A stretch of 63,382 bases of DNA from an uncultured Bacteroidota bacterium. Lineage in GTDB: Bacteria > Bacteroidota > Bacteroidia > UKL13-3. Position numbers and translations under genes: made by a program. Within the stretch, counting starts at the first letter, position 1. Each line of letters begins with the position of its first letter. Under the pieces are notes generated by a model that searched no databases, was not told the DNA's origin, and was given only the letters and a program-made list of their open reading frames with translations. Location: assembly GCA_903834625.1 (NCBI GenBank), contig CAILJQ010000265.1:1-63382 (forward strand). Reading direction: 5' to 3'. Shown piece by piece: positions 360-62,776 of this stretch.

Positions 360-755
360 CTATCCAATAAACTGCTTGCGGTGTTTAACAGAAGGTAGGG
401 GGCAGTTATCATAAGCGCCAAATACTTTTTTTCTGTTGCGGGCTACCCATTGGTATACTGCTTTAGAGAATGCATTAGGAAGAAACCTGAAGATACGAAT
501 GGCTCTTAATGGATACCCACAATGCTTGGCAATTTGAAAGGCAGCGTGGTGGTATAAATATACCTGACCATGCTCTATAAATATAACCGAATCACAGCTT
601 TCCGGAATGTTCAATTGCTTGCGCAGTTTGCTGGCTATTTCAGATTGTAGAGAGGCAAAGCGTAATTCTCCTTTTGGTTCAGACCGCAATACCATTTTAA
701 TAAACCCATGGCAAAGAGCACAATTGCCATCGTATAATACCAACAAGGGTTCCAT
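360..755 (-). CDS. DCC1-like thiol-disulfide oxidoreductase (DUF393 family)
   Basis: 131 aa with the N-terminal YDGNCALCHG CxxC motif typical of DUF393/DCC proteins. Its ATG overlaps the upstream stop (TAATG at 753-757). Confidence 0.7.
   Translation of the reverse strand: MEPLLVLYDGNCALCHGFIKMVLRSEPKGELRFASLQSEIASKLRKQLNIPESCDSVIFIEHGQVYLYHHAAFQIAKHCGYPLRAIRIFRFLPNAFSKAVYQWVARNRKKVFGAYDNCPLPSVKHRKQFIG
676..685 (+). repeat. iterated motif copy GGTTCAGACC
   Basis: Read directly. Context CCTTTTGGTTCAGACCGCAAT. Antisense within the DCC gene. Confidence 0.9.
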
Positions 756-1156
756 TATTTCCTTTTGGCCATCTCTGGGTTAAATCTTACGGGAGAAAAA
801 AGGTGCAACATCAAAACCCTGGCATGTCTGTAGGTGATGGGCGAACCAATGATTAAGGCAGAGACAATTGGTATGACGTAATCCCAAAAGTCGGCCTGGC
901 CATTGCTTACCCATAAGATAAAGCCTCCTAATACAATCATTAAGCCTACTGTAAGCGCATAACTTACATACATAGCACCCCAAAAGAAGCCCGGCTCAAC
1001 CTCATATTTTAGTCCACAAACTTTGCAGTGGGTATCCATTTCCATGAATTTATTGAGCTTGTAAAAAGGGTAATTAAACATCTTACCACTCTGGCATTGC
1101 GGACATTTTCCTTTTCCTATGGCCATCCAACGGTTAGGTTCGTACAAATCGCACAT
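755..1156 (-). CDS. DUF983-like membrane protein with a 4-Cys zinc-ribbon
   Basis: 133 aa with CPQC...CKVC cysteine pairs followed by two hydrophobic helices. It is tightly packed in the cox operon tail. An alternative start is the ATG at 1126. Confidence 0.6.
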   Translation of the reverse strand: MCDLYEPNRWMAIGKGKCPQCQSGKMFNYPFYKLNKFMEMDTHCKVCGLKYEVEPGFFWGAMYVSYALTVGLMIVLGGFILWVSNGQADFWDYVIPIVSALIIGSPITYRHARVLMLHLFSPVRFNPEMAKRK

Positions 1157-1158
1157 AC

Positions 1159-5271: not shown

Positions 5272-6243
5272 TTAAACGTTTTCTTTATTGAATTTAATTT
5301 TTGTAAACACCAAGATGGCAATGAAAATTTGCAATCCTGCTGTTAAACTACCCAAAGTAAGGTGAATGCTTTGGAATTGGGCTGGAAAACCTAGGTTCGC
5401 CAAAACAGCTCCAGTTAATGCTTGGGTACTCATTAACAACAACAAAGCCAAGGAGGCCTTGTAAAGCAAAGAATGGCGGTCGAAGAGGTTTTTGAATTTA
5501 TACATCAGAAAAGCACTCATGCCTAAATTCAATAAACTCCAACTTCTATGCGCTTTAAACAACAACCCCAATTGATCAACCCAAACATTGCGGTCGTCAA
5601 ATCTCTTGGCAACTTCATCTACCATCTCTCTTACTTGGGTTCCGCTTATGGTCTGAACCAAAGAGATGAGAAGAGTAAATAATACCAAGGTTTTTAAAGG
5701 TTTGTATGTTTGGTTTTGATGAATCACAAAATCTTGGCTGGCTGTAACTGTGTATATCAACAATGCCACAATAACCAAAGCCAATAACATGTGAATGGTT
5801 ATCATGTATACCGACAAATCGCTGGAAACTACCTTTGATCCTATCCAACCTTGGTAACCTACTAACATAAAAGCCAAGAAGCTTAGCCAGAATATTTTTT
5901 TGTTGTTACTCTTAAGGTAAGGAAAAGCAAAAATAACAGTGAGCAAAATAAGAAAGCCAATAACCACACCTATTAACCTGTTGATGTATTCTGTCCATGT
6001 TTTAAACACGTCGAAGTCGGCTATTTCTTTACCTGCCACGGCAAATTTTGTTTTGTAATCATCGGGTAGTTGACTCACATCGGTAGGAGGTACAAGGTGA
6101 CCGAAGCACTTTGGCCAATCGGGGCAACCCATTCCACTACCGGTGCTTCGCACCAATCCACCTACAAATATGAGAAAGAACACTGCCGCTATGGTAAGTA
6201 TACCAAAGCGTCTGAATCTATTTTGTTTGTTTGTTTCTATCAC
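5272..6243 (-). CDS. ctaA: COX15/CtaA family heme A synthase
   Basis: 323 aa, about 8 TM helices, with the N-terminal GSGMGCPDWPKCFG motif. GTG start. Confidence 0.8.
   Translation of the reverse strand: MIETNKQNRFRRFGILTIAAVFFLIFVGGLVRSTGSGMGCPDWPKCFGHLVPPTDVSQLPDDYKTKFAVAGKEIADFDVFKTWTEYINRLIGVVIGFLILLTVIFAFPYLKSNNKKIFWLSFLAFMLVGYQGWIGSKVVSSDLSVYMITIHMLLALVIVALLIYTVTASQDFVIHQNQTYKPLKTLVLFTLLISLVQTISGTQVREMVDEVAKRFDDRNVWVDQLGLLFKAHRSWSLLNLGMSAFLMYKFKNLFDRHSLLYKASLALLLLMSTQALTGAVLANLGFPAQFQSIHLTLGSLTAGLQIFIAILVFTKIKFNKENV
5650..5659 (-). repeat. iterated motif copy GGTTCAGACC
   Basis: The plus strand reads GGTCTGAACC. In the sense of ctaA it encodes LVQTI. Confidence 0.9.
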
Positions 6244-18121: not shown

Positions 18122-19525
18122 TTAGCCGTTGAATATTTTCCCTGGATTTAATATACCCATTGGGTCAAATGCCTGCTTAATACCACGCATCAATTGCAAA
18201 TTGGTTTCTGGCATTACTACACGCATAAACTTTTGTTGAACCAATCCTATACCATGTTCGCCGCTTATAGTTCCATGGAGCTTTTTGCATAAGGAGAAAA
18301 TTTCAACAATGGCTGCATTGAGTTCTTTGTTCCAAAATTCATCACTCAATTGGTCTTTCAAAATATTTACATGAAGGTTGCCATCTCCTGCATGTCCATA
18401 ACATACCGTTCTGAACCCATAACGTTTGCCAATTTCTTTTACCCCTTTAAACAAGGTTGGCAGTTCGGCTCGTGGCACAACAGTATCTTCTTCTTTGTAG
18501 GTATTGTTATGTTTGGTAGCTTCACCAATGGTTCTGCGCAATTTCCAGAAATATTCTTTTTGGTTGGCCGTTTCAGCAAACAACACATCTATGGCTTGGT
18601 GTTGGTATAGAACCTCACTTATTACTTCACATTCTGTCATCATTTGATCGCCATCATTCCCATCAACTTCTATCAATAAATAGGCACCTACATCTTCTGG
18701 TATGTCAAAATTTACTTGAAGCAATTGAGAGGATAAGCGAAAGCCATCTGGTTCCACAAATTCACAAGCAGATGGATTGGCTCCTGCTAAAAATATTCCA
18801 TTCACAGCTTCGCAAGCTTTTTCAGGAGAGGTAAAAGGAGCCAATAATAACATAGTATTTTTGGGAGCAGGTATGAGTTTTAAAACAATTTTGCTTACAA
18901 TACCCAAGGTACCCTCACTGCCAATCATGAGGTGCGTTAAGTTATATCCTGTAGAATATTTTAAAGTATTGGCTCCTGTTTCAATGATTTCTCCATTGGC
19001 CAATACCACTTCTAGGTTCAGAACGTAATCTCTGGTAGTGCCATATTTAACGGCTCTTGGTCCGCCACTGCTATGCGCAATATTTCCACCAATAAAGCAT
19101 GAGCCTTTACTTGCAGGATCGGGCGGATAAAACAAACCCTTTGCCCTTACAGCTTCTTGCAAGATTTCATTGATTACACCTGGTTCAACAATTACTTGAA
19201 AATTGCGTTCATCTATTTCAATTATTTTGTTCATGCGTTCCAAACTCAATACCACACCACCCATCACAGGCAAAGCCCCACCACTTAATCCTGTACCAGC
19301 ACCTCTGGCCGTAACGGGTATATGGTGTTGGTTGCAATAGCTTAGAACGGCTGAAATTTCTTGGGCATTGGCTGGTTTTACTACCACCTCGGGCGCAAAG
19401 CGCAAGTCTTCTGTATGGTCGTGGGCATAATTTTCTAGGTCTCGGTCTGAACCAAGGGTGTACTCTGGTCCGGTTACTTGAGCAAAATATGCCAAATCAG
19501 CTGTGTCAATTGCCTTAAATTTCAT
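18122..19525 (-). CDS. FAD-linked oxidase (GlcD / D-lactate dehydrogenase-like)
   Basis: 467 aa with an FAD-binding PCMH domain motif, RGAGTGLSGGALP, and a C-terminal GEHGIG motif. Confidence 0.85.
   Translation of the reverse strand: MKFKAIDTADLAYFAQVTGPEYTLGSDRDLENYAHDHTEDLRFAPEVVVKPANAQEISAVLSYCNQHHIPVTARGAGTGLSGGALPVMGGVVLSLERMNKIIEIDERNFQVIVEPGVINEILQEAVRAKGLFYPPDPASKGSCFIGGNIAHSSGGPRAVKYGTTRDYVLNLEVVLANGEIIETGANTLKYSTGYNLTHLMIGSEGTLGIVSKIVLKLIPAPKNTMLLLAPFTSPEKACEAVNGIFLAGANPSACEFVEPDGFRLSSQLLQVNFDIPEDVGAYLLIEVDGNDGDQMMTECEVISEVLYQHQAIDVLFAETANQKEYFWKLRRTIGEATKHNNTYKEEDTVVPRAELPTLFKGVKEIGKRYGFRTVCYGHAGDGNLHVNILKDQLSDEFWNKELNAAIVEIFSLCKKLHGTISGEHGIGLVQQKFMRVVMPETNLQLMRGIKQAFDPMGILNPGKIFNG
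19444..19453 (-). repeat. iterated motif copy GGTTCAGACC
   Basis: The plus strand reads GGTCTGAACC. In the sense of the FAD oxidase gene it encodes LGSDR. Confidence 0.9.
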
Positions 19526-19677: not shown

Positions 19678-21852
19678 ATGAAGAAATCTGTTTTGGGAGC
19701 CATATTATTGGTATTGGTTTGTACGCATGGAGCCTTGGCTCAGAAAGAAATTACATTAGAAGATATTTGGACCAAAGGAACCTTTTCTGCGAGAGGGGTA
19801 GCTGGTTTTAATTCTATGAATGATGGTAGGTATTACTGTAACCTTGATGAAAAACAAAACCTATTGCGTTTTGAATATGGCAGCGGTAAATTGGTAGATA
19901 CCCTTGTGCGCATGGCCGATATCAAATTGGCCAATAATGGCAATGCCATAGAATTATATAATTTTAGTTGGAGCGATGATGAAAGCAAATTGTTGATTGC
20001 TACCCAATCTGAAAGTATTTACCGCCATAGCAGTCAGAGCATTTTTTATTTATTCGATTTAAAGTCTAGAAAACTGATACAACCCGTTCAGGATAAAGTG
20101 AGATATGCTACCTTATCTTCAGATAATAGCAAGATGGCTTTTGTGCGCGCCAACGATCTGTATTATTATGATTTTGTATCAAACGCCGAAGTTAGGGTTA
20201 CAAGAGATGGCAAAGAGAATGCCATTATTAACGCGGCAACTGATTGGGTGTATGAAGAAGAGTTTGCTATTTGGAAAGGTTTTTCTTGGAGCCCCGATGG
20301 TAAGAAATTGGCCTTCTACCGTTTTGATGAAACCAAGGTGCCAGAATATGAAATGGCCATGTATGGTTCCTTATATCCTAAACAAAGTAAATTCAAATAC
20401 CCTAAAGCAGGCGAGGTAAATTCTGTAGTTTCTATTTTGGTATACGATACCAAATCAGAACTCATTACAGAGGTTCAGACCGGAACTGAAACCGACATTT
20501 ATTTGCCACGTATGATGTGGACGAGAAACAGCAATGTATTATGTGTGCAGCGTCTGAATCGTTTGCAAAACAAATTAGAAATTTTGTTGGCCGATGCAAA
20601 CAATGGCAAAACACAAGTAATTTTAACCGAAACAAACGAGTACTATGTAGATATTACCGATAACCTTTATTTCTTACAAGATGGCAAAACATTTTTGTTA
20701 AGCAGCGAAAGAGATGGCAATAACCATGTGTATTTATTTGATTTAAAGGGCAAGTTGGTAAAACAACTTACCAAAGGAAATTGGGATGTAGATGATGTAT
20801 ATGGCGTAGATGAGAAAAGTAAAAAATTATACTTCAGTTCATCTGAAGAGAATGCTGCTGAAAGATATGTGTACAGTGTAGGTTTAAATGGCAAAGGCAA
20901 AAGCAAATTAAGTAATGGCAAAGGATGGCACAGTGCCAGTTTTAATGCCGACTTCACCTATTACCTCGATGTGTTTAGCAATATAAACACTCCTCCTGTT
21001 TACCAATTAATGAATGCCAATGGAGCAGTGGTGCGTGTATTAGAAGACAATAAATCACTACAAAAAAAATTAGCTGAATATGCCTTGCCACAAATTACTT
21101 TTACCACTATCGCAAATGAAGCAGGTGATGCCATGAACATGTACACCTTATTACCTCCTAATTTTGATAGCACCCGTAAATATCCTGTGTTGATGTATGT
21201 ATATGGCGGTCCGGGTTCACAAACAGTTTTGAACCGATGGAGTGGCGGAAACTTCTTTTGGTACCATATGTTGGCGCAAAAAGGTTATATCATTGTTTCT
21301 ATTGATGGAAGAGGCACAGGTTTTAAGGGTGAAAAGTTTAAAAAATGCACCTACCTTAATTTGGGTAAATATGAAATAGAAGACCAAATTTTTGCAGCAC
21401 GTAAATTGGCAAGCCTACCTTATGTAGATGCCAGCAGAATGGGTATTTGGGGTTGGAGCTTTGGAGGATACATGGCCGGTCTTGGGATAAGCAAAGGAAA
21501 TGATGTATTTAAAGCAGCCATTTCTGTAGCACCTGTAACAAATTGGCGTTATTACGACAATATTTATACCGAGCGTTTTATGCGCACACCACAAGAAAAT
21601 GGAAAGAACTACGACGACAATTCACCGATGAATCATGTAGATAAGATTAAAGGAAACTACCTTATCATTCACGGCACCGCCGATGACAATGTGCATTTCC
21701 AAAATGCAGTAGAGATGGTTGATAAGATGATTCAAAAAGGCGTAAAATTCGATTCAGAATTTTATCCAAACAAAAACCATGGCATTGGTGGCTCAAAAAC
21801 GCGCTTGCATTTATATGAGCGCATGACACGCTTTATCTTGGAAAAGTTATAA
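19678..21852 (+). CDS. S9B dipeptidyl-peptidase IV
   Basis: 724 aa with a signal peptide, an N-terminal beta-propeller region and a C-terminal alpha/beta hydrolase with the nucleophile elbow GWSFGGYM. It also has HGTADDNVH and NHGI, consistent with a Ser-Asp-His triad. Confidence 0.9.
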   Translation: MKKSVLGAILLVLVCTHGALAQKEITLEDIWTKGTFSARGVAGFNSMNDGRYYCNLDEKQNLLRFEYGSGKLVDTLVRMADIKLANNGNAIELYNFSWSDDESKLLIATQSESIYRHSSQSIFYLFDLKSRKLIQPVQDKVRYATLSSDNSKMAFVRANDLYYYDFVSNAEVRVTRDGKENAIINAATDWVYEEEFAIWKGFSWSPDGKKLAFYRFDETKVPEYEMAMYGSLYPKQSKFKYPKAGEVNSVVSILVYDTKSELITEVQTGTETDIYLPRMMWTRNSNVLCVQRLNRLQNKLEILLADANNGKTQVILTETNEYYVDITDNLYFLQDGKTFLLSSERDGNNHVYLFDLKGKLVKQLTKGNWDVDDVYGVDEKSKKLYFSSSEENAAERYVYSVGLNGKGKSKLSNGKGWHSASFNADFTYYLDVFSNINTPPVYQLMNANGAVVRVLEDNKSLQKKLAEYALPQITFTTIANEAGDAMNMYTLLPPNFDSTRKYPVLMYVYGGPGSQTVLNRWSGGNFFWYHMLAQKGYIIVSIDGRGTGFKGEKFKKCTYLNLGKYEIEDQIFAARKLASLPYVDASRMGIWGWSFGGYMAGLGISKGNDVFKAAISVAPVTNWRYYDNIYTERFMRTPQENGKNYDDNSPMNHVDKIKGNYLIIHGTADDNVHFQNAVEMVDKMIQKGVKFDSEFYPNKNHGIGGSKTRLHLYERMTRFILEKL
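20472..20481 (+). repeat. iterated motif copy GGTTCAGACC
   Basis: Inside the DPP-IV gene, encoding EVQTG. Confidence 0.9.
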
Positions 21853-22698: not shown

Positions 22699-22708
22699 GG
22701 TTCGAACC
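22699..22708. repeat. iterated motif copy GGTTCGAACC (perfect palindrome)
   Basis: The only intergenic copy. Context TTATTGGTTCGAACCGAACCC. Confidence 0.9.
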
Positions 22709-22775
22709 GAACCCAAAAAGGGCGTTTGCAAAAGTGAGAACTTAATGTATATTGCACATTCAACAATTGACTATT

Positions 22776-32483: not shown

Positions 32484-32533
32484 CTATAATTCCAAATGGA
32501 GAGAAAAGATACAGCCACGGGTTAAAATAAATC

Positions 32534-32572: not shown

Positions 32573-32591
32573 AGTATGAAAAGTGAATCGA

Positions 32592-37111: not shown

Positions 37112-37150
37112 AAAAAAGAGGCTGACTCCAATGGAGACAGCCTCTTTTTT
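37112..37150. terminator. bidirectional rho-independent terminator (anti-sigma gene / secG)
   Basis: AAAAAAGAGGCTG-actccaatggaga-CAGCCTCTTTTTTT, with A and T runs on either side, between convergent genes. Confidence 0.7.
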
Positions 37151-37165
37151 TATTAGGAATATTTT

Positions 37166-40196: not shown

Positions 40197-40220
40197 CAAT
40201 TTTCGGGCCAATGAGAAGAC

Positions 40221-40259
40221 AAAAAAAAGGCTGCTTCGATGGAAACAGCCTCTTTTTTT
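40221..40259 (-). terminator. rho-independent terminator after gltA
   Basis: On the minus strand: AGAGGCTG-tttccatcgaag-CAGCCT followed by T8. It begins about 15 nt after the gltA stop. Confidence 0.7.
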
Positions 40260-40273
40260 AAATTTATGGAATG

Positions 40274-41708: not shown

Positions 41709-44030
41709 ATGAAAATAAAGCCGTTTCAGCTATTCATGATATTCGTCATTCTCCTGAGTTCCAATATTCAGGCGCAGAATTTGTTGATCAAAGGCATTGT
41801 TTTAGATGAGACAACCTACAAGCCATTGCCCGCCACATCTGTAAGTTTAGATAAAAAAAATATTGCTTTTACAGATTCAAATGGCTTTTTTTCTTTCAGC
41901 ACCCAACCTGGTAAACATCTTATAAAGGTAAGTAGAATTGGATACCGAAACACTGAATATCCCATTGATGAGCAATTATCGGGTAAGCGTGACATTCAAA
42001 TTCTATTGGTTCCATTCGTAAATCAATTGAATCAAGTGGTAGTGGCAGGCTCGCGTGGAGCAAAAGAAGTTTCAAGAGAGGTAACTTCCATTAATATTAT
42101 TCAACCTTATTTAATAGCAAATAGCAATTCGGCAGATTTATCGGAGGTGCTTAACAAAGTGCCTGGCGTAATGGTGGTTGATGGTCAGGCTACCATTAGA
42201 GGAGGGGTTGGTTTTTCTTACAACACAGGTAGCAGGGTGGCAGTGCTCTTAGATGATATGCCCTTGTTGGGAGCAGATTTGGCCGATGCGCGTTGGACAT
42301 TTCTTCCTATTGAATCGGCAGAACAAATAGAGGTAATTAAAGGTTCTGCCTCTGTTTTGTATGGCTCTTCGGCTTTAAATGGAACGGTGAATGTACGTAC
42401 GGGTTGGGGAACAGAGAAGCCTCAAACCAAATTTCAGTTTTACCAAGGCATTTTGTCGAACCCCAAAAGGACAGAAACCATATGGTGGAATCGCACGGCC
42501 CATCCCATGAATGGGGGAATGTTTTACAGCCACAAGCAAAGTTGGGGCAAATTTGACCTAGTTACTTGTGGGAATTTAAACGCTATACATAGTCATTTAC
42601 AATTTGCCGATGCTTACAGGGCGCGTAACTATTTAAAGACGAGGTATAGGTTCACCAAAAATTTTAGTGCGGGTATCAATTTAAATATCATGTATGAGGA
42701 GGCCGGGAGGTTCTTTCTTTGGCAAAATGCCGATTCAGGCGCATTAAAGCCTATAGACAATTATGTGGTAGATGATTTTTACCGCATTGTTTCTATTGAC
42801 CCACATGCAGAATGGCGCAAAGGCAAATTGGTTCAAACCTTTAAAGGTAGGATATACCAAATCAAACGATTTGTGGACAGGGTATTATTCCCCGCAGATA
42901 ATGATGCCATTGCCAACTTATATGCATTTGATTATAACTTACGAACCAAGTTATATAAGAACCTAGACCTTACTGCCGGAACTTATTTAACCACTTTATG
43001 GGCTGTGGGAAATGTATACAAAGGGGAGTTTGCAGGATTTAGTGCAGCGGCCTTTGCACAAATGGATTACAGATATAAACGTTGGAGTTTTGTTTTAGGT
43101 GGAAGGTATGAAGTGAATGGGTTGGATGTGTATTCTGAACCAACTGGTTTGTTAAAAAGGATAGGGGTAAATTATGAGCTAAGAGAAAAGACGTTTATCC
43201 GCGCCAACTACTCAGAAGGCTATCGTTTCCCAACTATTGGAGAAAAGTTTGTAGAAGACAAAGCGGCCAGTTTGCGCATTTTCCCGAACCATGATTTGGT
43301 TTCGGAAAAAGGATGGACAGCAGAAATTGGCGTGCAGCAGGGTTTTAAAATAGGGAACTTTAGTGGAGCTTTCGACTTTACCTTCTTTAACCAAGAATAT
43401 GATAGTATGATAGAGTTTAGGTTCGACCAATGGCTTTCTTCTGTTGACCACCCTAATGTTCCCTTGTTGCAGAGAATAGGTTTTAAGGCAGTTAATATTG
43501 GTCAGACACGCACCGCTGGTTTTGAAATTAACTTAAGTGGAGAAGGCAGAATAGGAGATGTGTTGATTAGAACCTTAGGAGGCTTTACCTACGCTATGCC
43601 TGTTAATATTTCTGCCGATGCCCAAATGAAAGAATGGGGCTATTACTCTAAAGCGCTGTTTGGGAGTTTGGGAGAGTTAGACAGTGCCAAATATTACAAT
43701 GCTTTGTTGCCTTACAGAAATAGGAAAACTGCTAAAATTGACTTTGAAGCGGGTTATAAAAAGTTCCTTATTGGCTATTCATGTAACTATTACAGCATTT
43801 ATGAAAAAATAGATCCGTTTTTTACGGTGTTTACACCAACCGTAAATACGTTTTTTGAACGAGCAGGTAAAGGTGATTTTGTGCAGAATATCAGGTTTTC
43901 ATTTCAAATGAATGAAACCAGTAGAATTGGGATCTTAATAAACAACTTCACTAATGTTGAGTATGCCACAAGGCCATGTAAAATTGATGCTCCTCGCAGT
44001 TTTAATGTACAATTAAGGGTGATGTTCTAA
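41709..44030 (+). CDS. TonB-dependent receptor with an N-terminal carboxypeptidase-regulatory-like domain
   Basis: It has a signal peptide and a CarbopepD_reg-like segment (IKGIVLDETTYKPLPATSVSL). A plug domain follows (IEVIKGSASVLYGSSALNGTVNV), then a large barrel ending ...QLRVMF. The start is at the ATG (MKIKPF). Confidence 0.85.
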   Translation: MKIKPFQLFMIFVILLSSNIQAQNLLIKGIVLDETTYKPLPATSVSLDKKNIAFTDSNGFFSFSTQPGKHLIKVSRIGYRNTEYPIDEQLSGKRDIQILLVPFVNQLNQVVVAGSRGAKEVSREVTSINIIQPYLIANSNSADLSEVLNKVPGVMVVDGQATIRGGVGFSYNTGSRVAVLLDDMPLLGADLADARWTFLPIESAEQIEVIKGSASVLYGSSALNGTVNVRTGWGTEKPQTKFQFYQGILSNPKRTETIWWNRTAHPMNGGMFYSHKQSWGKFDLVTCGNLNAIHSHLQFADAYRARNYLKTRYRFTKNFSAGINLNIMYEEAGRFFLWQNADSGALKPIDNYVVDDFYRIVSIDPHAEWRKGKLVQTFKGRIYQIKRFVDRVLFPADNDAIANLYAFDYNLRTKLYKNLDLTAGTYLTTLWAVGNVYKGEFAGFSAAAFAQMDYRYKRWSFVLGGRYEVNGLDVYSEPTGLLKRIGVNYELREKTFIRANYSEGYRFPTIGEKFVEDKAASLRIFPNHDLVSEKGWTAEIGVQQGFKIGNFSGAFDFTFFNQEYDSMIEFRFDQWLSSVDHPNVPLLQRIGFKAVNIGQTRTAGFEINLSGEGRIGDVLIRTLGGFTYAMPVNISADAQMKEWGYYSKALFGSLGELDSAKYYNALLPYRNRKTAKIDFEAGYKKFLIGYSCNYYSIYEKIDPFFTVFTPTVNTFFERAGKGDFVQNIRFSFQMNETSRIGILINNFTNVEYATRPCKIDAPRSFNVQLRVMF
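42830..42839 (+). repeat. iterated motif copy GGTTCAAACC
   Basis: Inside the TonB-dependent receptor gene, encoding LVQTF. Confidence 0.9.
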
Positions 44031-45304: not shown

Positions 45305-46366
45305 ATGAGAAAGTTTAGAGGACTTATAATTTTATTGGCAGTATTGGCTGTATTGTTTATTCCCAAGTTTTTTTGTGGGGATAAGAAAATGGAGGTTGGA
45401 CCCAAAGGTGGAGGTGGAGGACCGAAGTCGAAGGTAGCAGTAAGCATACAAGTATTACAAGCAGAAAAGGTATCACCCTTATACCAAGTGAGCGGAACCC
45501 TTGAGGCAAATGAGCAGGTAGATTTACATGCTGAAACCCAAGGTTTGGTTACCCGTTTGTATTTTAAAGAAGGAGCCCATGTAAGCAAAGGAGAGTTGCT
45601 GTTGAAGATGAATGATGCAGAATTTCAAGCGCAACTGAAGAAAGCAATGGCAACTAAAAAATTGAAAGCTGAGAATGCTAATAGGAATGCCATTTTATTG
45701 AAGAAAGAGGCTATTTCTCAAGCAGATTATGATTTGGCAGTGTCTGAATTAAATGCCATTGAGGCCGATATCGATTTTTTAAAAGAGCAAATCAGAAAAA
45801 CAGAAATACGTGCACCCTTTAGTGGTATGATAGGTTTAAGAAATATTAGTGAAGGGACTTACCTAACTCCTTCAACTGTTATAGCCACCTTAGAGGATCC
45901 TTCGCAATTAAAATTAAGCTTTTCGGTTCCTGAAAAATATGCCTTAAAAATAAAAGTAAATGATCCCATTCATTTTAAGGTGAGTGGTTCTGACGAAGAA
46001 TTTACGGCAAAAATTTATGCACGTGATGCCAGTGTTTCTGCGCAAACAAGAACCATTCGCATGAAGGCTTTATGTGCCAATGCTGGGTCTAAATTGATGC
46101 CTGGATTGTTTGCAAACATTAGCCTTACCCTTGGTTCAGACCGAAACTCTTTTATGATACCAACCCAATCTTTGGTGCCAGTGTTAAAAGGACAAAAGGT
46201 GTTTATTGTGAAAGGAGATTCTGCACTTGATGTGATGGTAAAGACAGGCTTTAGAAGTGAGAATAAAATTGAAATAACCGATGGCTTGCACGAAGGAGAT
46301 TCATTGGTTGTTGATGGTATTATGTATATGAAAAAAGGGGTGAAGGTAAAGGTGAGCAAGAAATAA
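45305..46366 (+). CDS. RND efflux periplasmic adaptor (membrane fusion protein)
   Basis: 353 aa with an N-terminal anchor, a coiled-coil hairpin region and a beta-barrel domain. It lies directly upstream of the RND pump. Confidence 0.85.
   Translation: MRKFRGLIILLAVLAVLFIPKFFCGDKKMEVGPKGGGGGPKSKVAVSIQVLQAEKVSPLYQVSGTLEANEQVDLHAETQGLVTRLYFKEGAHVSKGELLLKMNDAEFQAQLKKAMATKKLKAENANRNAILLKKEAISQADYDLAVSELNAIEADIDFLKEQIRKTEIRAPFSGMIGLRNISEGTYLTPSTVIATLEDPSQLKLSFSVPEKYALKIKVNDPIHFKVSGSDEEFTAKIYARDASVSAQTRTIRMKALCANAGSKLMPGLFANISLTLGSDRNSFMIPTQSLVPVLKGQKVFIVKGDSALDVMVKTGFRSENKIEITDGLHEGDSLVVDGIMYMKKGVKVKVSKK
46133..46142 (+). repeat. iterated motif copy GGTTCAGACC
   Basis: Inside the RND adaptor gene, encoding LGSDR. 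Confidence 0.9.
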
Positions 46367-52631: not shown

Positions 52632-55345
52632 ATCAATTGGCTTTTAGGTTATTTAGGTCGTTTTCGATTTATCTATCCGTTCTTTTTATGCTTTCGGTGG
52701 TAAATCGGGTTTATTCTGCCAACTGCTATTTTTATACAAAATTAAACCCTTTATCCGTCATATCTGCAAGTAAAATAAAGTCGATAAACTTAAATAACTA
52801 TTTATCAGGACGTTATATTTTTGAAGATTCTCTCCGAAAGTCGACAAATGCTGTAGTTGATACCTTGGTGAGTGATAGTAACCTGTTACCTCATACAGCC
52901 TCTGCCATAAAAGATAAAGTCAAATACAACGCCAAAGATTCTATTGTGTACAGTGCGGCCAAAAAAACGGCCACATTATATAGTGAGGCAAAAATCAATT
53001 TTGCAGAATATGAGATGACGGCTGCTATTATTAAAATAAACCTCGATAGTAGTTTAGTAAATGCGGTAGGAGAAAAAGACAGTGTAGGTAAATTGGTTCA
53101 TACACCCGAATTCAAACAAGGGTCGGATGAATACCATATAGAAGAAGTAACCTTCAACTACCAAACCAAAAAAGGTTTGATGCGAGAGTTTAGGACACAG
53201 GAAGGTGATGGGTATATTAGAGGGGAGAAGGTAAAACGTGATGAGCATAATAACTTTTATATAAGGGATAGTTATTATACAACGTGTAGTGAGCATGAAC
53301 CACATTTTGCTATTGATGCAAAAAAGTTAAAAGTAATTCCAGGGTCAAGGGTTATAACTGGCCCCGCCAATTTAAGTATAGCAGGAGTAAAAACTCCTTT
53401 GTTTGTGCCTTTTGGTATTTTTCCTCTGAAGCGTGGACAACAATCTGGTTTAATTATTCCCTCTTATGGAAATGCAGCAGGAAGGGGATTTTTCTTACGC
53501 CAAGGTGGTTATTATTTTGGAATGGGCGATAAATCTGATTTGGCCTTAACGGGAGATATCTATGCAAATGGAAGTTGGCAATTAGGGGCACGTATGAATT
53601 ACGCTGCTAAGTATAAACACAATGGAAGTTTTAGTGGGAACTACGCCAAAAACATAACAGGTATGCCAGAGGACAAAGATTATTCTAAGTTCACCACCTT
53701 TCAAATTTATTGGTCGCACAACATGGATGGCAAAGCCAAGCCAGGAACCTCTTTTAGAGCAGATGTAAACTTGGTAGGGAATCAATACTTGGCATTTAAT
53801 ACCTATGCCAATAACAATACAGCCTTTAACAATAATATAAACTCCTCTATCAACTTCAGCAAATCAATGGGGAAGGGGAAATACAATTTAGGAACTACAG
53901 CAAGGGCTTCTCAAAATACACGCACAAGAGATATCTCTATCACCTTGCCCGATCTTACTTTTTCAGTTGCCTCCTTTCAGCCATTTAAGCCAAAGTGGAA
54001 ACCAACCGCAGAGAAATGGTATGAAAAAATTAGCATGAACTATTTAGGAGTAATGCAAAACGTTCTGAACGCAAAGGATAGCTTGTTGTTTAAATCACGC
54101 TCGTCGGCAGATACCAAATTGTTTTTAGACAGTGTGATGCGGAATGGGGCTCGTCACACAGTTGGTATACAGAACGCATTTAATTTATTTAAATATTATA
54201 CTGTTTCTGTTGGGGGTGATTACAATGAAGTATGGACAATGAAAACCCTTCGGAAAAATTTTGATCCAGAAAGCAAATCGGTTCAGACCGAAAATGTAAG
54301 TGGATTTGAACGTGCCTATACCTATTCTATGCGAGGAGGTATCTCTACCCGTTTTTATGGAATGAAGCAATTTAAAAAAGGACGTTTACAAGCTATTCGG
54401 CATGTGATTAATCCTGATTTGAGTTTTTCTTATGTCCCCGATTTTTCTACTGCAGCCTATGGCTATTATAAATCGGTTCAAACCGATACCACCGGAAAAA
54501 CAAGCAACTATACTATTTTTGAGAATAGCTTGTATGGCAGTCCGGGTAGGGGTAGACAAGGTAATATCAATTTTGGGTTGGATAACAACCTAGAGATAAA
54601 ATGGAAAAAAGGAAAAGATACTTCGGAGAAAATTGAGAAAATAAAAATATTTGAAAGTATAAGGGCTGGGGCTAGTTACAACATTTTTGCCGATAGCATG
54701 AATTTAAGTACTATTCCCATTAGCTGGCGTACCACTTTGTTTAAATCGGTGAGTTTAAATGGTTCGGCCACGCTTGATCCTTATGTAAATAAGGTGGTAT
54801 CCGTTAATAACGTAAACTATTACCAAAGAGTAAACCAGTTTTATTTTAATGAAGAAAGAAAATTAGGTGTTATTACCAATGCCTATTTAGGCTTAGGAGC
54901 AGCTCTTACACCTGAGATGTTTAAAAGCAAAGACGCACAGAAAAGAGAACGATTGAAAAAGGAAATGGCCTCAGGTAACTATACAGAAGTGAATATTCCC
55001 TGGTCTTTGAGTTTGCAATACACCATTTCGTATGACTACCGCAGTAAGATTGATCCAACTTCCACGCAATTGGTTCAGAATTTATTGTTTAATGGTACCA
55101 TAAACCCAACCAAAAATTGGTTTATTAATTTCAATTCAGGATATGATTTTAAGCAGAAAAAGATCTCGCATTTGGGAATTGATTTGCGTAGAGAATTACA
55201 TTGTTGGGAATTTACCTTTGCCTGGACACCCTTATCTGCCTATGGAAATCAGTATTTTATTTTTAACTTAAGGGTGAAATCTTCTGTATTGCAAGATTTA
55301 AAAATTCCGAAACGGAAAGACTGGTTTGATAACCGGAGGATATAA
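52601..55345 (+). CDS. lptD: LptD-like large outer-membrane beta-barrel protein
   Basis: 914 aa. The MlaD / amidase / LptD neighbourhood is conserved in Bacteroidota (from memory). Only the TTG starts at 52601 or 52613 leave a plausible signal peptide (RLFRSFSIYLSVLFMLSVVNRVYSA). The first ATG (52688) falls inside the hydrophobic core. Confidence 0.6.
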   Translation: MYATLKSRFSYQLAFRLFRSFSIYLSVLFMLSVVNRVYSANCYFYTKLNPLSVISASKIKSINLNNYLSGRYIFEDSLRKSTNAVVDTLVSDSNLLPHTASAIKDKVKYNAKDSIVYSAAKKTATLYSEAKINFAEYEMTAAIIKINLDSSLVNAVGEKDSVGKLVHTPEFKQGSDEYHIEEVTFNYQTKKGLMREFRTQEGDGYIRGEKVKRDEHNNFYIRDSYYTTCSEHEPHFAIDAKKLKVIPGSRVITGPANLSIAGVKTPLFVPFGIFPLKRGQQSGLIIPSYGNAAGRGFFLRQGGYYFGMGDKSDLALTGDIYANGSWQLGARMNYAAKYKHNGSFSGNYAKNITGMPEDKDYSKFTTFQIYWSHNMDGKAKPGTSFRADVNLVGNQYLAFNTYANNNTAFNNNINSSINFSKSMGKGKYNLGTTARASQNTRTRDISITLPDLTFSVASFQPFKPKWKPTAEKWYEKISMNYLGVMQNVLNAKDSLLFKSRSSADTKLFLDSVMRNGARHTVGIQNAFNLFKYYTVSVGGDYNEVWTMKTLRKNFDPESKSVQTENVSGFERAYTYSMRGGISTRFYGMKQFKKGRLQAIRHVINPDLSFSYVPDFSTAAYGYYKSVQTDTTGKTSNYTIFENSLYGSPGRGRQGNINFGLDNNLEIKWKKGKDTSEKIEKIKIFESIRAGASYNIFADSMNLSTIPISWRTTLFKSVSLNGSATLDPYVNKVVSVNNVNYYQRVNQFYFNEERKLGVITNAYLGLGAALTPEMFKSKDAQKRERLKKEMASGNYTEVNIPWSLSLQYTISYDYRSKIDPTSTQLVQNLLFNGTINPTKNWFINFNSGYDFKQKKISHLGIDLRRELHCWEFTFAWTPLSAYGNQYFIFNLRVKSSVLQDLKIPKRKDWFDNRRI
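54280..54289 (+). repeat. iterated motif copy GGTTCAGACC
   Basis: Inside the lptD-like gene, encoding SVQTE. Confidence 0.9.
54475..54484 (+). repeat. iterated motif copy GGTTCAAACC
   Basis: Inside the lptD-like gene, encoding SVQTD. Confidence 0.9.
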
Positions 55346-59279: not shown

Positions 59280-60983
59280 TTAAGCTGTTTTAGGTTTCGG
59301 TTCGAACCAATGGAAAAGGTAAAAGACAAAAGCAATACCTATAACCAATAAACTACCGAAAAGGTTAAACCACAAGAAGCTAATAGAGGTAAAGAAATAT
59401 AAAGTTAGCACAACTATTTCAGATATAACAGCTGCATAAAATGCTTGTCCGCCTCCAATTTGTTTGAACATAAAGGCAATTAAAAATATACCTAATATGG
59501 TTCCATAAAAGAGCGAACCTAATACATTTACTGCTTCAATTAAACTACCTAATTTATTGGCAAACATGGCAACAAAAATGGCATAAACACCCCATAGGGC
59601 AGTTGTTAATTTAGATACCTTCAAGTAATGTTCATCTGATCCATCTTTTTTGAAACTACGTTTGTAAATATCTATGATGGTGCATGATGCCAAGGCGTTT
59701 AATTCGGCCGATTTACTTTGCATGGATGCGGCAAAAATAACAGCTATTAATAAACCAATTAAACCATGAGGGAGGTAGTCAATTACAAAGCGAAGGAAGA
59801 TATAATTGGTATCGTCTGTTTCTGCCTTTGGGTCGTTTTGACGCATCAGGGTTTTGGCTTGTTTACGTAATACTTGCGTGGCATTTTCAGCAATAAATAA
59901 ATTGTGTTTGGCTTTTTCAACTTGCACTTCATCGCCACTTTTTAAACCTTGGTTTAGGTCGCTAGCAGAACGTTGTTTTTGTGCGTTCCAAAAGGCATGT
60001 TTGTTATTTAATTGTTGCCATTCTGTTTTGTATTGACTGTTTTCTAACTTAGTAGTTTCAGTTGAATTGAAGAACAATGGGGCAGGTAAAAATTGGTAAA
60101 AAACAAACAACAATACACCTATCAATAAAATGAAAAATTGCATAGGAACTTTAATCAAACCATTCATAAGGAGACCCATGCTGCTTTGGTTCAAATCTTT
60201 GGAAGAAATATACCTAGAAACCTGACTTTGGTCGGTGCCAAAATAGGAAAGTGCCAAAAAGAAGCCTCCAATAATTCCGCTCCAAAGGGTGTATTTATTG
60301 TTTAAGTCAAAGCCCAGATCGATGATATTCATTTTACCCATTTTGCCACCCATTTGCACTGCCTCTGAAAAGCCAATGTCTTCTGGTAGTAAACGTACAA
60401 TCATGTAACCAGCTAGGAACATTCCAATGAAGATGATGGTCATTTGCTGCAAATGGGTATAACTTACTGCCTTAGAGCCACCAGCTACGGTATATAAAAT
60501 TACAATGCCACCAATAAACAAGTTGGTATAATAAATATTCCAACCTAGTAACGCAGATAAAATAAGGCTGGGTGCATATAAAGTTAATCCAGAAGCCAAA
60601 CCTCTTTGGGTTAGAAAAAGGAGGGAAGTAAAAACGCGTGTTTTTTGGTCGAAGCGATTTTCAAGGAACTCATAAGCTGTATAAACCTTCAATTTATGGT
60701 ATATAGGCAAAAAGAAAACGCTAATAACCACCATGGCAATAGGCAAACCAAAATAATATTGCACAAAGCGCATTCCATCTGTATATGCCTGTCCGGGTGC
60801 AGATAGGAAGGTGATGGCACTGGCTTGGGTAGCCATAATGCTTAAACCAACCATATACCAAGGGGTGCTTTTATCGCCCTTGAGGTAAGTATCTATGTTG
60901 GTGGCTCCTCTACTTTTGTATATGCCATATCCTGCAATACCAAATAAGGAGGCCAGTAAAACAACCCAATCTAAAATGCTCAT
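59280..60983 (-). CDS. sodium:solute symporter (SSS) family transporter
   Basis: 567 aa with at least 13 TM helices, the typical SSS N-terminus (DWVVLLASLFGIAGYGIYKSRG), and a roughly 95 aa hydrophilic insertion. Confidence 0.85.
   Translation of the reverse strand: MSILDWVVLLASLFGIAGYGIYKSRGATNIDTYLKGDKSTPWYMVGLSIMATQASAITFLSAPGQAYTDGMRFVQYYFGLPIAMVVISVFFLPIYHKLKVYTAYEFLENRFDQKTRVFTSLLFLTQRGLASGLTLYAPSLILSALLGWNIYYTNLFIGGIVILYTVAGGSKAVSYTHLQQMTIIFIGMFLAGYMIVRLLPEDIGFSEAVQMGGKMGKMNIIDLGFDLNNKYTLWSGIIGGFFLALSYFGTDQSQVSRYISSKDLNQSSMGLLMNGLIKVPMQFFILLIGVLLFVFYQFLPAPLFFNSTETTKLENSQYKTEWQQLNNKHAFWNAQKQRSASDLNQGLKSGDEVQVEKAKHNLFIAENATQVLRKQAKTLMRQNDPKAETDDTNYIFLRFVIDYLPHGLIGLLIAVIFAASMQSKSAELNALASCTIIDIYKRSFKKDGSDEHYLKVSKLTTALWGVYAIFVAMFANKLGSLIEAVNVLGSLFYGTILGIFLIAFMFKQIGGGQAFYAAVISEIVVLTLYFFTSISFLWFNLFGSLLVIGIAFVFYLFHWFEPKPKTA
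59299..59308. repeat. iterated motif copy GGTTCGAACC (perfect palindrome)
   Basis: At the 3' end of the SSS symporter gene, encoding WFEP (a different frame). Confidence 0.9.
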
Positions 60984-61180
60984 GCCAAATTTTGGGTTAA
61001 AATGAAATAAATAATCATTTGAATGATTAACAGGATTATAACGGCGAAATACCAGTTTTTGAGCGAATTTTCGCTTTTTTCACTTATTTGTTCATCCTCA
61101 ATTTTTACCATTGGTATTATTTTTTATGGTTTAGCGCCAAACATCAAATATAATTGCCCTACTAAAACAAACCTAACATT

Positions 61181-62776
61181 ATGCGTGTATTTCCCCTTCT
61201 CCTCACAGGTGCCTTATTAAGTTTCAACGCCTTTGCGCAAAAGCAAGCTCCCGACAATTGGTTCAACCTTGACCCCAAACAAGATAAAATTTGGGGAGTT
61301 AGCACAGAGCGTGCATACAAAGAGTTGCCTATTGGAAAGAATTCTGAAAAAATTATCGTAGCAGTAATTGATGCAGGTACAGATATAAACCATGAAGACC
61401 TAAAAGGCAATTTGTGGGTAAACACCAAAGAAATTCCAGGTAATGGCATTGATGATGATAAAAACGGATACATAGATGATATCAACGGATGGAGTTTTAT
61501 TGGTGGAGCCAAAGGGAATGTAAAGGAGGATACCTATGAATACACACGTATTTTGGGTTCATACTTGGCTAAAGGCGTAAAAGAAGGCGAAACACCTAAT
61601 TTTAAAACTCCTGAAGAAAAAGCACTTTATGAGGCAGCCTTGAAATTGTATGAAGAAAATTATAAGTCAACCAAAGGTCAGTACGACCAGTTTACCGAGT
61701 TGATGGATAAAATTGAGGCAACCATTAAAAAGACAGGATCTAAAAATCCTACCATGGCTATGTTGGGATTATTGCCAGAAACCACTAAGGAAGAAAAGAG
61801 CTTAAAGCAAATTGTTTCTTATATAATCATGACAGGTGGTCCTGAGGAGTCGCCAGTAATGGTTTCTTTCAGAGAAGCGCAAGAGCAATTAGCCACTATG
61901 GTAAATTATAACCTTAACAAAAGCTTTGATCCCCGTTATATGGTTGGCGACAACTATGATGACTTAAAAGAGAGATATTATGGCAATAACCAAGTAAGTG
62001 CGCCAAACACAGATCATGGAACACATGTGGCAGGAATTATTGCTGCAGATAGAAACAATGATATTGGTATCAAAGGTATTTCTGATAGGGCTTTGATTAT
62101 GACTTTGCGTGTAGTACCAAACGGCGATGAGCGTGATAAAGATATTGCCAATGCCATTAGATATGCAGCAGATAACGGCGCAAAGGTAATTAACATGAGC
62201 TTTGGTAAGAAGTTAAGTCCAAACAAAGACATTATTGATGAGGCAGTAGCCTATGCAATGAGCAAAGATGTATTGTTAATACATGCTGCAGGTAATGATG
62301 GAAAAGATATTACCAAAGAGGATTTTTATCCTACAGCTACCAATGCTAAAACAGGTTTGAAAGCTGCCAATTGGATTGAAGTAGGTGCGTGCAGCTGGGA
62401 AGGAAAAAAGAAAAGAGTTGCTGATTTTTCAAATTATGGATTAACGGGTGTTGAAGTTTTTGCCCCTGGGGTAGATTTGAATTCATGTTACCCAGATAGC
62501 AAATACAAAAGTAATAGTGGTACAAGTATGGCTGCACCAGTAGTTTCTGGTATTGCCGCTGTTATTCGTCAGAACTATCCAAAACTCACCGCGGTTCAAA
62601 CCAAACAAATTATATTAATGAGTGCCATTCCTTGCAAAGAAAAAGTGATGTTACCTGGCAGCAAGAAGAAAACCAAAATGAAGAAAATTTCTGTAACAGG
62701 AGCTATTGTAAATGTATACGAAGCCTTGTTATTGGCAGAGAAAGTAAGCAAAGGAGAAGTTACCTTGCCACAATAA
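61181..62776 (+). CDS. S8 subtilisin-like serine peptidase, secreted
   Basis: It has a signal peptide. The catalytic triad motifs are VAVIDAGTD, HGTHVAGIIAA and SGTSMAAPVVSG. Confidence 0.9.
   Translation: MRVFPLLLTGALLSFNAFAQKQAPDNWFNLDPKQDKIWGVSTERAYKELPIGKNSEKIIVAVIDAGTDINHEDLKGNLWVNTKEIPGNGIDDDKNGYIDDINGWSFIGGAKGNVKEDTYEYTRILGSYLAKGVKEGETPNFKTPEEKALYEAALKLYEENYKSTKGQYDQFTELMDKIEATIKKTGSKNPTMAMLGLLPETTKEEKSLKQIVSYIIMTGGPEESPVMVSFREAQEQLATMVNYNLNKSFDPRYMVGDNYDDLKERYYGNNQVSAPNTDHGTHVAGIIAADRNNDIGIKGISDRALIMTLRVVPNGDERDKDIANAIRYAADNGAKVINMSFGKKLSPNKDIIDEAVAYAMSKDVLLIHAAGNDGKDITKEDFYPTATNAKTGLKAANWIEVGACSWEGKKKRVADFSNYGLTGVEVFAPGVDLNSCYPDSKYKSNSGTSMAAPVVSGIAAVIRQNYPKLTAVQTKQIILMSAIPCKEKVMLPGSKKKTKMKKISVTGAIVNVYEALLLAEKVSKGEVTLPQ
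62593..62602 (+). repeat. iterated motif copy GGTTCAAACC
   Basis: Inside the S8 peptidase gene, encoding AVQTK. Confidence 0.9.

Follow-up and report, generated by a model that had tools for sequence, protein, structure and literature searches.

Signature words are the clearest genomic footprints of frequent DNA exchange within a species or of a sequence-specific repair drive, and to our knowledge only the uptake tags of Neisseria and Haemophilus and the HIP1 word of cyanobacteria are known to behave this way. The DNA uptake sequences (DUS) of Neisseriaceae come in lineage-specific dialects that follow phylogeny (PMC3630211). The uptake signal sequences (USS) of Pasteurellaceae arise by point mutation without gaps in alignments, have an "anomalously strong consensus" when compared with regulatory binding sites (PMC1626085), and favor one orientation within reading frames (PMC2346458). 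HIP1 has been replaced by other words in some lineages, its function was left unresolved (PMC4390886), and it has lately been linked to transformation efficiency, with a reported boost to natural transformation when the word is methylated (bioRxiv 10.1101/2024.09.10.611283). Here we describe a word of this general kind, GGTTCRRACC, in DNA of an uncultured freshwater member of the Bacteroidota (GTDB lineage Bacteroidia, UKL13-3). The word was noticed in an initial annotation, made from sequence alone, of a 63,382-nucleotide stretch of contig CAILJQ010000265.1 (assembly GCA_903834625.1), called the window below.

In the Bacteroidota, natural transformation is known and relies on unusual pilus-free machinery: Riemerella anatipestifer and R. 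columbina are both naturally competent without pili (PMC7965970, PMC8459023). In competition assays R. columbina preferred its own DNA, and a search for its uptake word identified none, the top k-mers being A-rich, low-complexity strings (PMC7965970). Among the novel components that a transposon screen in Riemerella showed to be essential are an outer-membrane CarboxypepD_reg barrel and a helix-hairpin-helix protein (PMC8459023). Our literature searches found no report of an uptake-type or HIP-type word in Bacteroidota, or of GGTTCRRACC itself, in line with the initial annotation, which knew of none; nor did any paper turn up that mentions the accessions of the source assemblies. A sharply defined word with apparent dialects in an abundant uncultured freshwater clade would offer a concrete, testable handle on DNA self-recognition.

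Results

An exact search of both strands recovered 16 distinct GGTTCRRACC sites in the 63.4-kb window (Table 1), every one with the position and strand given in the initial annotation, and its one-off variants and perfect 16-base copy were also found where it had placed them. Eight sites are the AG form GGTTCAGACC, four the palindromic form GGTTCGAACC, and four the AA form GGTTCAAACC; the window contains no copy of GGTTCGGACC. When the four palindromes are counted twice, these make 20 occurrences, compared to an average of 0.25, and never more than 3, in 100 dinucleotide-preserving shuffles. Markov models trained on the window itself, signal included, predicted 0.49 (order 3), 0.76 (order 4), and 1.75 (order 5). 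The G+C content of the window is 38.3%, close to the 40% that had been guessed by eye.

The same word emerged from a k-mer census of the window. TTGGTTCA tops all 8-mers with 33 copies against 7.6 expected, TTGGTTCAG tops the 9-mers (17 against 1.1), and every leading 10- to 12-mer that is not A/T rich is a fragment of TTGGTTCAGACCGA or TCGGTTCGAACCGA. Five further sites lie in 15.3 kb read outside the window on the same 306-kb contig, for a total of 21 in 78.7 kb. Density in the lineage is about one strict copy per 4 kb and about one relaxed copy per kb, with an iteratively relaxed matrix matching 146 times in 147 kb compared to 13.7 times in triplet-shuffled controls; partial copies thus form a graded halo around the full word. 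An over-representation of about 30- to 60-fold is near certain, and the strong excess claimed at the outset holds against dinucleotide shuffles, Markov models up to order 5, and the codon-preserving shuffles described next.

Fifteen of the 16 window sites are within coding sequences (CDSs) whose proteins are mutually unrelated, three of them hypothetical. By frame, eight sites encode V-Q-T, two V-R-T, two G-S-D, and one W-F-E-P, while two are antisense and one is intergenic, a tally identical to that of the initial annotation (V-Q/R-T 10 times). Pfam agrees with the names it gave to named host genes, with weak backing for "anti-sigma." Shuffling synonymous codons, with the protein and per-gene codon usage retained, reduced the 15 CDS sites to a mean of 1.43 and a maximum of 5 in 1,000 runs, and permuting codons left 0.23, so the excess survives the codon-preserving control that had been proposed for it. 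In the window the tripeptide VQT occurs 11 times compared to 2.4 expected from amino acid frequencies, a 4.6-fold excess. Eight of these 11 are spelled GTT-CAR-ACC, five of them with CAG even though CAG makes up 18% of Gln codons, and the V-R-T copies are spelled with CGA, which represents 6% of Arg codons. Rare-codon spelling combined with the VQT excess indicates that the word is imposed on coding sequence, bending codon choice as well as peptide content.

In an enlarged set of 56 sites, none of them used as search seeds, sense copies number 21 and antisense copies 15, with 13 others palindromic and 7 intergenic. Because one of the three antisense frames holds a TGA stop (G-GTC-TGA or G-GTT-TGA), the null ratio of sense to antisense is 3:2, or 21.6:14.4. 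The observed 21:15 matches this null, revealing no bias for the transcribed strand and excluding an RNA-level function. V-Q-T (sense) and G-L-N (antisense) dominate among frames, and the intergenic share of 7/56 (12.5%) is near the noncoding share of the window, about 8%. It is near certain that the word behaves as a signal in duplex DNA without preference for strand or compartment. The initial annotation had placed the constraint on DNA or RNA rather than on a protein motif and had called for a tabulation of strand against transcription. The DNA half of that claim stands, and the RNA half does not, since orientation tracks stop-codon avoidance.

Explanations in which GGTTCRRACC is not a DNA signal at all include a shared L/S-V-Q-T-E peptide, a by-product of codon usage, a mobile element or one resembling repetitive extragenic palindromes (REP), a tRNA T-loop or other structured RNA, and an assembly artifact. 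Together they are scarcely credible, even though 10 of the 16 window copies share the V-Q/R-T frame and the word resembles the tRNA T-arm GGTTCGAATCC. A protein motif or codon artifact is ruled out by the synonymous and codon shuffles, in the first of which 90% of copies are lost, and by the use of rare codons; antisense and intergenic copies and the unrelated host proteins speak against it as well. Mobile, REP, or miniature inverted-repeat transposable elements were rejected on the basis of gap-free orthologue alignments, the location of 15 of 16 copies in CDSs, and repeat searches, which found no longer repeat, similarity stopping within about 21 nucleotides. Neither a single protein domain nor a single mobile element family, the two explanations that the initial annotation had said would undo its claim, accounts for the sites. 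The window contains no tRNA genes or Rfam families, and the word is one base short of the T-arm and lacks its stem, which removes a tRNA or T-loop origin. An assembly artifact is at odds with the presence of the same word in independent NCBI, JGI, ENA, and Logan assemblies.

Tallying bases by position over the 56 non-seed sites gave the 16-base consensus TTGGTTCAGACCGAAA, with GGTTCRRACC as its strict core. T precedes the core at position -2 and T or C at -1; GGTTC, two positions of A or G, and ACC are followed by G or A at +10, A at +11, and weak A at +12 and +13, with no information outside positions -2 to +13. The flanking extension seen in the initial annotation can thereby be sharpened to T-[T/C]-GGTTC-R-R-ACC-[G/A]-A-(A)-(A). 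Covariation of the kind expected of a stem is absent between positions -1 and +10 (C-G 7, C-A 8, T-G 22, T-A 11). A hairpin, cruciform, or structured RNA was also rejected because folding of the commonest form is weak: TC...GA forms reach about -5 kcal/mol, and the commonest TT...AG...GA form reaches -1.5 kcal/mol, no better than shuffles.

The center of the word is restricted to AG, AA, or GA and is never GG. Among GGT-NNNN-ACC words in 272 kb of clade DNA, TCAG was found 43 times (seed biased, about 25 unbiased), TCAA 21 times, and TCGA 15 times; TCGG was absent, and any other center, including CTAG and TTAA, was present in at most three copies. AG and AA centers are synonymous in both main frames (CAG/CAA and CTG/TTG), and the AG:AA ratio is 8:7 in the sense frame compared to 18:82 in codon usage and 4:10 in antisense compared to about 10:90. 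As AG is used far above codon preference, G is actively favored at the seventh core position.

The two halves of the word are not equivalent. In the same 272 kb, GGTTC is near invariant, with 0 to 2 variant copies per base, and the right side is softer, with nine copies of GGTTCAGACA, six of GGTTCAGAAC, and seven of GGTTCAGGCC. Single-nucleotide deviations cluster on the 3' side only, at core positions 8 to 10 and in the flank, rather than symmetrically. For the AG form, 43 perfect copies (a count partly seed biased toward AG) compare with about 41 for all noncognate single-substitution neighbors combined. Outside full sites the left half, TTGGTTCR, is enriched, with 78 copies compared to about 30 expected; RRACCGAA, the right half, shows no enrichment of its own (18 compared to 21.7). 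The word is therefore asymmetric and no true palindrome, with a strict 5' core TTGGTTCA(G) and a softer ACCGAAA after it; "near-palindromic," as it was first described, overstates its symmetry. No strand polarity was detected in the window, where TTGGTTCA is distributed 18(+):15(-), GC skew is uniform at +0.04, and coding strands are balanced.

Two further details of the copies deserve mention. At core positions 9 and 10, the C-to-A one-offs counted above (GGTTCAGACA and GGTTCAGAAC) far exceed C-to-T changes (GGTTCAGACT once, GGTTCAGATC never), although C-to-T is expected to be the commonest form of decay and the Thr codons ACA and ACT are used to a similar extent. This excess could reflect either a reader that tolerates A or repair directed specifically at T:G mismatches. 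An extra GGTTTC or GGGTTC also stands upstream of about 20% of palindromic GGTTCGAACC copies, giving GGTTTC-GGTTC-GAACC, with two direct and one inverted GGTTC-like half-sites. Such copies are at window positions 38114-38134, 59290-59310, and 22691-22719 (reverse strand), and at L001:19205-19230 and L207:1176-1195 (L numbers designate loci in our collection).

The window belongs to a genome recovered in the Logan assembly of ERR9580692; the nearest named relative of its lineage is "Bacteroidetes bacterium B1(2017)" (GCA_002256395.1), and the closest GTDB species representatives share at most 83% COX1 identity. Across a wider Bacteroidota background of 80 loci totaling 1.42 Mb, only 13 sites were found (0.091 per 10 kb, 28-fold fewer than the 2.52 per 10 kb of the window), about half of them at one conserved coding position common to related loci. 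No comparably hyper-abundant word, the same or another, was present in these 80 loci. An apparent second word at L014:17001-17063 in a GTDB relative (uncultured bacterium bin-0739) proved to be confined to a single locus, where (AATTCCT)n heptamers form tandem arrays in an inverted pair.

Closer relatives, reached via LptD and dipeptidyl peptidase IV (DPP-IV) homologues and the contigs that carry them, do share the word. The closest (L083; LptD 97%, nucleotide identity 93.9%) retains all four orthologous sites, with 55 of 56 motif positions identical, a level of conservation that is suggestive when compared with overall identity but not significant. The only change is an A/G switch at an allowed degenerate position, where L083 has GGTTCAGACC and the window has GGTTCAAACC (site 42830). 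Measured against the other-Bacteroidota background, the word is also enriched in B1(2017) (L084; LptD 73%; 4 sites in 44.9 kb, P = 9e-4), in a JGI contig (L085; LptD 72-73%; 6 sites in 22.7 kb, P = 9e-8), and in a lineage from JGI sample 3300077578 (LptD 67%; 5 sites in 44.9 kb, P = 7e-5). Loci L089 (LptD 65%), L090 (LptD 62%), and L263 (DPP-IV 69%) have one site each, which is not significant. It is near certain that enrichment is clade-wide and fades with distance, being seen in relatives with LptD identities of 97% to about 67% and no longer significant at or below 62-65%. The counts in relatives that the initial annotation had asked for thus show the enrichment persisting.

Codon-level alignments of about 25 sites with five to six relatives showed that sites are mostly at nonorthologous positions between lineages and were built in place by substitution, both synonymous and nonsynonymous, without indels. 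At L084:3864, for example, ACG GTT CGA ACC replaces the ACT GTT AGA ACA of relatives, both encoding V-R-T. At 54280 in LptD_2, the window protein reads K-S-V-Q-T-E-N where 73% orthologues have K-T-V-E-T-E-D or K-S-I-T-S-K-N. The orthologue alignments that the initial annotation had proposed thus show residues changed in places to fit the word. Between 73% relatives about one site in six is conserved: site 62593 is the only window site kept at an orthologous position in B1(2017) (L084:21951), and site 54475 is also found in a 67% relative (L088) and is absent from the 73% relatives. The center differs between lineages as well, being AA in 5/5 sites of the 3300077578 lineage compared to 6/21 in the window lineage (hypergeometric P = 0.007, 45 kb sampled), which suggests an AA-only dialect.

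Scanning metagenome contigs with a 15-mer of the word matched at least 120 stretches, most of them single chance hits of any G+C content. Among the matches listed, about 20 contigs of 35-40% G+C had several sites, 13 of them from JGI sample Ga0163151. Fifteen of these multisite contigs (94 kb) contained 24 non-seed sites, or one per 3.9 kb, the same density as the window, and one motif-rich contig encodes the type IX secretion system protein PorZ, confirming it as Bacteroidota. A link to phage was rejected, as the same scan of IMG/VR yielded 49 hits, each of them single and together no more than chance would give, and no phage densely marked with the word.

Table 1. Copies of GGTTCRRACC and other features of the window. 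Palindromic copies have no strand entry.
Position (strand)	Sequence or form	Location (gene span, strand)	Frame or remark
676..685 (+)	GGTTCAGACC (ttGGTTCAGACCgc)	DCC1-like thiol-disulfide oxidoreductase gene (360-755, -)	antisense; sense strand R-S-E-P
5650..5659 (-)	GGTTCAGACC	COX15/CtaA (5272-6243, -)	sense; G-GTT-CAG-ACC, V-Q-T
19444..19453 (-)	GGTTCAGACC (ttGGTTCAGACCga)	FAD-linked oxidase gene (18122-19525, -)	sense; G-S-D
20472..20481 (+)	GGTTCAGACC	dipeptidyl peptidase IV (19678-21852, +)	sense; V-Q-T
22699..22708	palindromic GGTTCGAACC (ttGGTTCGAACCgaac)	between divergent DUF4197 (-) and POT-transporter (+) genes	sole intergenic copy in the window
27710..27719	palindromic GGTTCGAACC (ttGGTTCGAACCaa)	pseudouridine synthase gene (27399-27977, +)	V-R-T; rare Arg codon CGA
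28375..28384 (+)	GGTTCAAACC	fatty-acid desaturase gene (27974-28990, -)	antisense; sense GGT-TTG-AAC, G-L-N
31385..31394 (-)	full consensus ttGGTTCAGACCgaat	hypothetical gene (31313-32275, -)	sense; L-V-Q-T-E
35743..35752 (+)	full consensus ttGGTTCAGACCgaaa	putative anti-sigma gene (35288-36937, +), downstream of extracytoplasmic function (ECF) sigma factor	sense; L-V-Q-T-E
38120..38135	perfect 16-base palindrome TTCGGTTCGAACCGAA, core 38123-38132	hypothetical 691-aa gene (37535-39610, -)	S-V-R-T-E
42830..42839 (+)	GGTTCAAACC	TonB-dependent receptor gene (41673-44030, +)	V-Q-T
46133..46142 (+)	full consensus ttGGTTCAGACCgaaa	RND adaptor gene (45305-46366, +)	G-S-D-R
54280..54289 (+)	tcGGTTCAGACCgaaa	LptD_2 (52688-55345, +)	S-V-Q-T-E
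54475..54484 (+)	tcGGTTCAAACCgat	LptD_2 (52688-55345, +)	S-V-Q-T-D
59299..59308	palindromic core tcGGTTCGAACCaa	3' end of sodium:solute symporter gene (59280-60983, -)	W-F-E-P
62593..62602 (+)	GGTTCAAACC	peptidase S8 (61181-62776, +)	A-V-Q-T-K
22752..24470, 24472..25980	tandem paralogous genes		POT/PTR2 peptide transporters
32527..32575	hairpin (AAAAAAAGGCYGC...GCAGCCTYTTTTTTT)	3'-end spacer of groEL (32592-34229, -)	terminator-like
37113..37152	similar hairpin	3'-end spacer of secG (37166-37531, -)	terminator-like
38588..38755	42-nt unit repeated in tandem, four or more copies	hypothetical 691-aa gene (37535-39610, -)	
40219..40267	similar hairpin	3'-end spacer of lptE/citrate synthase (39658-40191 / 40274-41587, both -)	terminator-like

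Several other features of the window were also noted. The hypothetical 691-residue protein, which has no match in Pfam or NCBIfam, is encoded in part by tandem 42-nucleotide repeats with 77-80% identity between 84-nucleotide segments, and the repetitive segment they encode is probably acidic and Lys rich. Three similar terminator-like hairpins stand in spacers at the 3' ends of genes, and a tandem pair of POT/PTR2 peptide transporters, with 76-79% nucleotide identity in short conserved stretches, is also conserved in relatives L261, L262, and L263.

Discussion

That a single duplex-DNA word is hyper-abundant in this lineage and turns over within its clade is near certain. As to what maintains it, we tentatively favor a self-recognition word of the DUS/USS type, spread by biased DNA uptake and homologous recombination. 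This reading draws on the combination of a sharp consensus, a strict core with a soft flank, occurrence on both strands and in genes as well as spacers, origin by point mutation, turnover of sites, fading or possible dialect change with distance, an equal density in independent metagenome contigs, and the existence of pilus-free transformation in the phylum. The lack of strand or compartment preference, as expected for a duplex signal, also counts in its favor. According to this model, DNA with the oriented core TTGGTTCA(G) would be bound preferentially by some part of the pilus-independent Bacteroidota transformation machinery, located at the surface or in the periplasm. Uptake and recombination would then favor fragments bearing the word, any mutation giving rise to a new copy would have a transmission advantage, and this molecular drive would continue until offset by selection acting on the proteins encoded. 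Uptake itself, a receptor for it, and competence in this lineage are the parts of the model that we infer.

Several observations weigh against uptake as the driving force. Strict density, at about one copy per 4 kb, is three to four times below that of Neisseria or Haemophilus. Inverted pairs acting as terminators, which are common for DUS and USS, were not evident, and only one close inverted pair (in L156) was seen. Perfect palindromes make up 15 of about 60 non-seed cores, which is more typical of HIP1 or methylation sites. A helix-hairpin-helix barrel family that might supply a receptor is present across Bacteroidota without the word and is thus nondiscriminating. Finally, every sequence-intrinsic feature listed above is equally expected from an intracellular, sequence-biased repair drive.

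Two proteins encoded near copies of the word are of interest as possible parts of an uptake apparatus. Outside the window, L158:1379-3397 (+) (JGI Ga0163151_10000477) encodes a secreted protein of 673 residues, in a gene that itself carries two motif copies. The protein combines an N-terminal ComEA-type helix-hairpin-helix (PF12836) with a large beta-barrel of about 22 to 26 strands. Its AlphaFold model has a pLDDT of 84.8, with MtrB, the FimD usher, and TonB-dependent transporters (BtuB) as the best PDB matches at TM scores of about 0.4. The family is fast diverging, and its members are labeled "ComEA family DNA-binding protein" in some sources and "predicted porin" in others. The protein is a plausible candidate for an outer-membrane DNA receptor or channel. 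On the same contig as the window, about 4 to 7 kb past its left end, L002:17875-20613 (+) encodes a 912-residue outer-membrane protein with CarboxypepD_reg and OMP_b-brl_3 domains. R. anatipestifer RA0C_RS04915, which is essential for transformation (PMC8459023), has the same domain type; proteins of this type have many paralogues.

An intracellular process resembling HIP1, which would write and restore the word in any DNA replicating in the cell and leave uptake no role, is a competing but unlikely explanation. One example would be a methyltransferase with its target inside GGTTCRRACC acting together with a sequence-specific mismatch repair nuclease of the very-short-patch type. A high excess, lineage-specific replacement of words, and biased single-nucleotide deviations all fit the phenomenology of HIP1 (PMC4390886). 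The palindromic cores are centered on TTCGAA/TCGA, a classic methylation target, and a CpG-methylated GGTTCGAACC could become GGTTCAAACC by a single deamination. TTCGAA had been flagged in the initial annotation as a restriction or methylation target, an idea that covers only about one-quarter of sites. The scarcity of C-to-T one-offs (0 and 1 at core positions 9 and 10, compared to 6 and 9 for C-to-A) is what repair of T:G mismatches would give, but the left half shows no mirror of this asymmetry. In addition, the consensus is asymmetric, its left half is independently enriched, and the most frequent center, AG, is neither palindromic nor reachable by deamination. A specificity of 14 to 16 bp would also be unusually long for very-short-patch repair. 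Signatures of m5C or N6 methyltransferases, Vsr, or GIY-YIG proteins were not detected when 338 kb of clade DNA was screened crudely for motifs, a coverage too low to carry weight. As methylated HIP1 is reported to boost transformation, repair-driven and uptake-driven explanations may converge.

A high-copy site for an abundant chromosomal DNA-binding protein, whether nucleoid associated, organizing, or a defense-related reader of "self," with each site weakly selected, is quite unlikely in our judgment. The word is of the right size for a dimeric helix-turn-helix footprint, being a duplex, strand-independent quasi-dyad of about 14 to 16 bp with a strong half-site and a weaker partner, and the extra GGTTTC upstream of some palindromic copies could be a further half-site. 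The near-complete identity of the four sites in the closest relative points the same way, without reaching significance. In contrast, retention of about one site in six between 73% relatives implies weak function per site, and intergenic or promoter DNA is not preferred. Sites such as parS, matS, and those bound by Noc number tens per genome, not about a thousand. The consensus is also far sharper than is usual for selected binding sites (argument from PMC1626085). A polar recombination or segregation signal, read in one orientation by RecBCD/AddAB as Chi is or by FtsK as the FtsK-orienting polar sequences (KOPS) are, is very improbable and was rejected. The density of about one copy per 4 kb resembles that of E. 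coli Chi, and the core is asymmetric. For HIP1, a partly Chi-like action has been suggested (bioRxiv 10.1101/2024.09.10.611283). However, polarity is absent under a uniformly positive GC skew, with TTGGTTCA nearly balanced between strands. Along the contig, oriented full sites divide 10(+):4(-); this imbalance does not reach significance, and gene orientation together with stop-codon avoidance accounts for it. Orientation tracks the host gene rather than the contig, and a quarter of the sites are palindromic.

We see it as possible, with slightly less confidence than uptake itself, that GGTTCRRACC is the first sequence-specific DNA-uptake, or self-recognition, word outside the Proteobacteria, read by pilus-independent machinery, for instance a helix-hairpin-helix/beta-barrel or CarboxypepD_reg-barrel receptor, with dialects that may act as gene-flow barriers among uncultured freshwater Bacteroidota. 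Whatever the driver, the word illustrates how far such a drive bends codon usage and peptide composition in core genes. It could also serve as a binning or taxonomic marker for the clade in metagenomes and could be incorporated into constructs designed to manipulate these organisms genetically.

The suggestion that the word behaves like DUS, USS, or HIP1 is supported by shuffles, Markov models, rare-codon use, orthologue alignments, and persistence in relatives, and the likeness differs from system to system. Neisseriaceae DUS (GCCGTCTGAA and its dialects) are read by a receptor, the minor pilin ComP of a type IV pilus, and are required for uptake and transformation to be efficient. They similarly consist of a 10- to 12-mer core with weaker flanks, exceed expectation by orders of magnitude, and occur on both strands in genes and spacers, in thousands of copies at about one per kb compared to the lower density here. 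The AA-only form of one lineage may correspond to a dialect in the DUS sense. Differences from DUS include the phylum, an overall unrelated sequence, a strict density three to four times lower, and the lack of clear terminator-forming inverted pairs. The CTG that is invariant in DUS corresponds here to the variable center (AG, AA, or GA). Neither a type IV pilus nor ComP would be expected in this lineage, since pili are not needed for transformation in Riemerella (PMC8459023). The heptamer GTCTGAA is common to GCCGTCTGAA and TCGGTCTGAACC, the AG form read on its complementary strand (e.g., window 35741-35756), probably by coincidence.

Pasteurellaceae USS (AAGTGCGGT core with AT-rich flanks), for which experiments have demonstrated preferential uptake, share several features with the word: an asymmetric strong core with a softer flank, perfect copies that rival single-mismatch copies (43 compared to about 41 for the AG form), origin by substitution only with gap-free alignments, and a mostly intragenic location with favored frame and orientation and a footprint in the proteome (VQT 11 compared to 2.4). 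Unlike USS, the word is a quasi-dyad with about 25% palindromic cores and lower density, and its sequence is unrelated to AAGTGCGGT. HIP1 (GCGATCGC) and the alternative HIPs are likewise short words that are hyper-abundant in coding and spacer DNA alike within a single phylum-level group. As strict GC-rich palindromes, HIPs contain the target of orphan methyltransferases in the genome, whereas the consensus here is asymmetric and its left half is enriched by itself. Single-nucleotide deviations from HIPs concentrate at the outer positions; those from the word lie on its 3' side. The preference of R. columbina for its own DNA shows that a discrimination mechanism exists in the same phylum (PMC7965970), although no specific word was identified there, the basis could be methylation, and Riemerella is distant from the window lineage. 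By sequence, GGTTCRRACC is a member of none of the DUS, USS, or HIP1 families, and it is neither a strict palindrome, as HIPs are, nor polar in the manner of Chi and KOPS. The best reading of these comparisons is that it may work like, or at least evolves like, the uptake words of Neisseriaceae and Pasteurellaceae.

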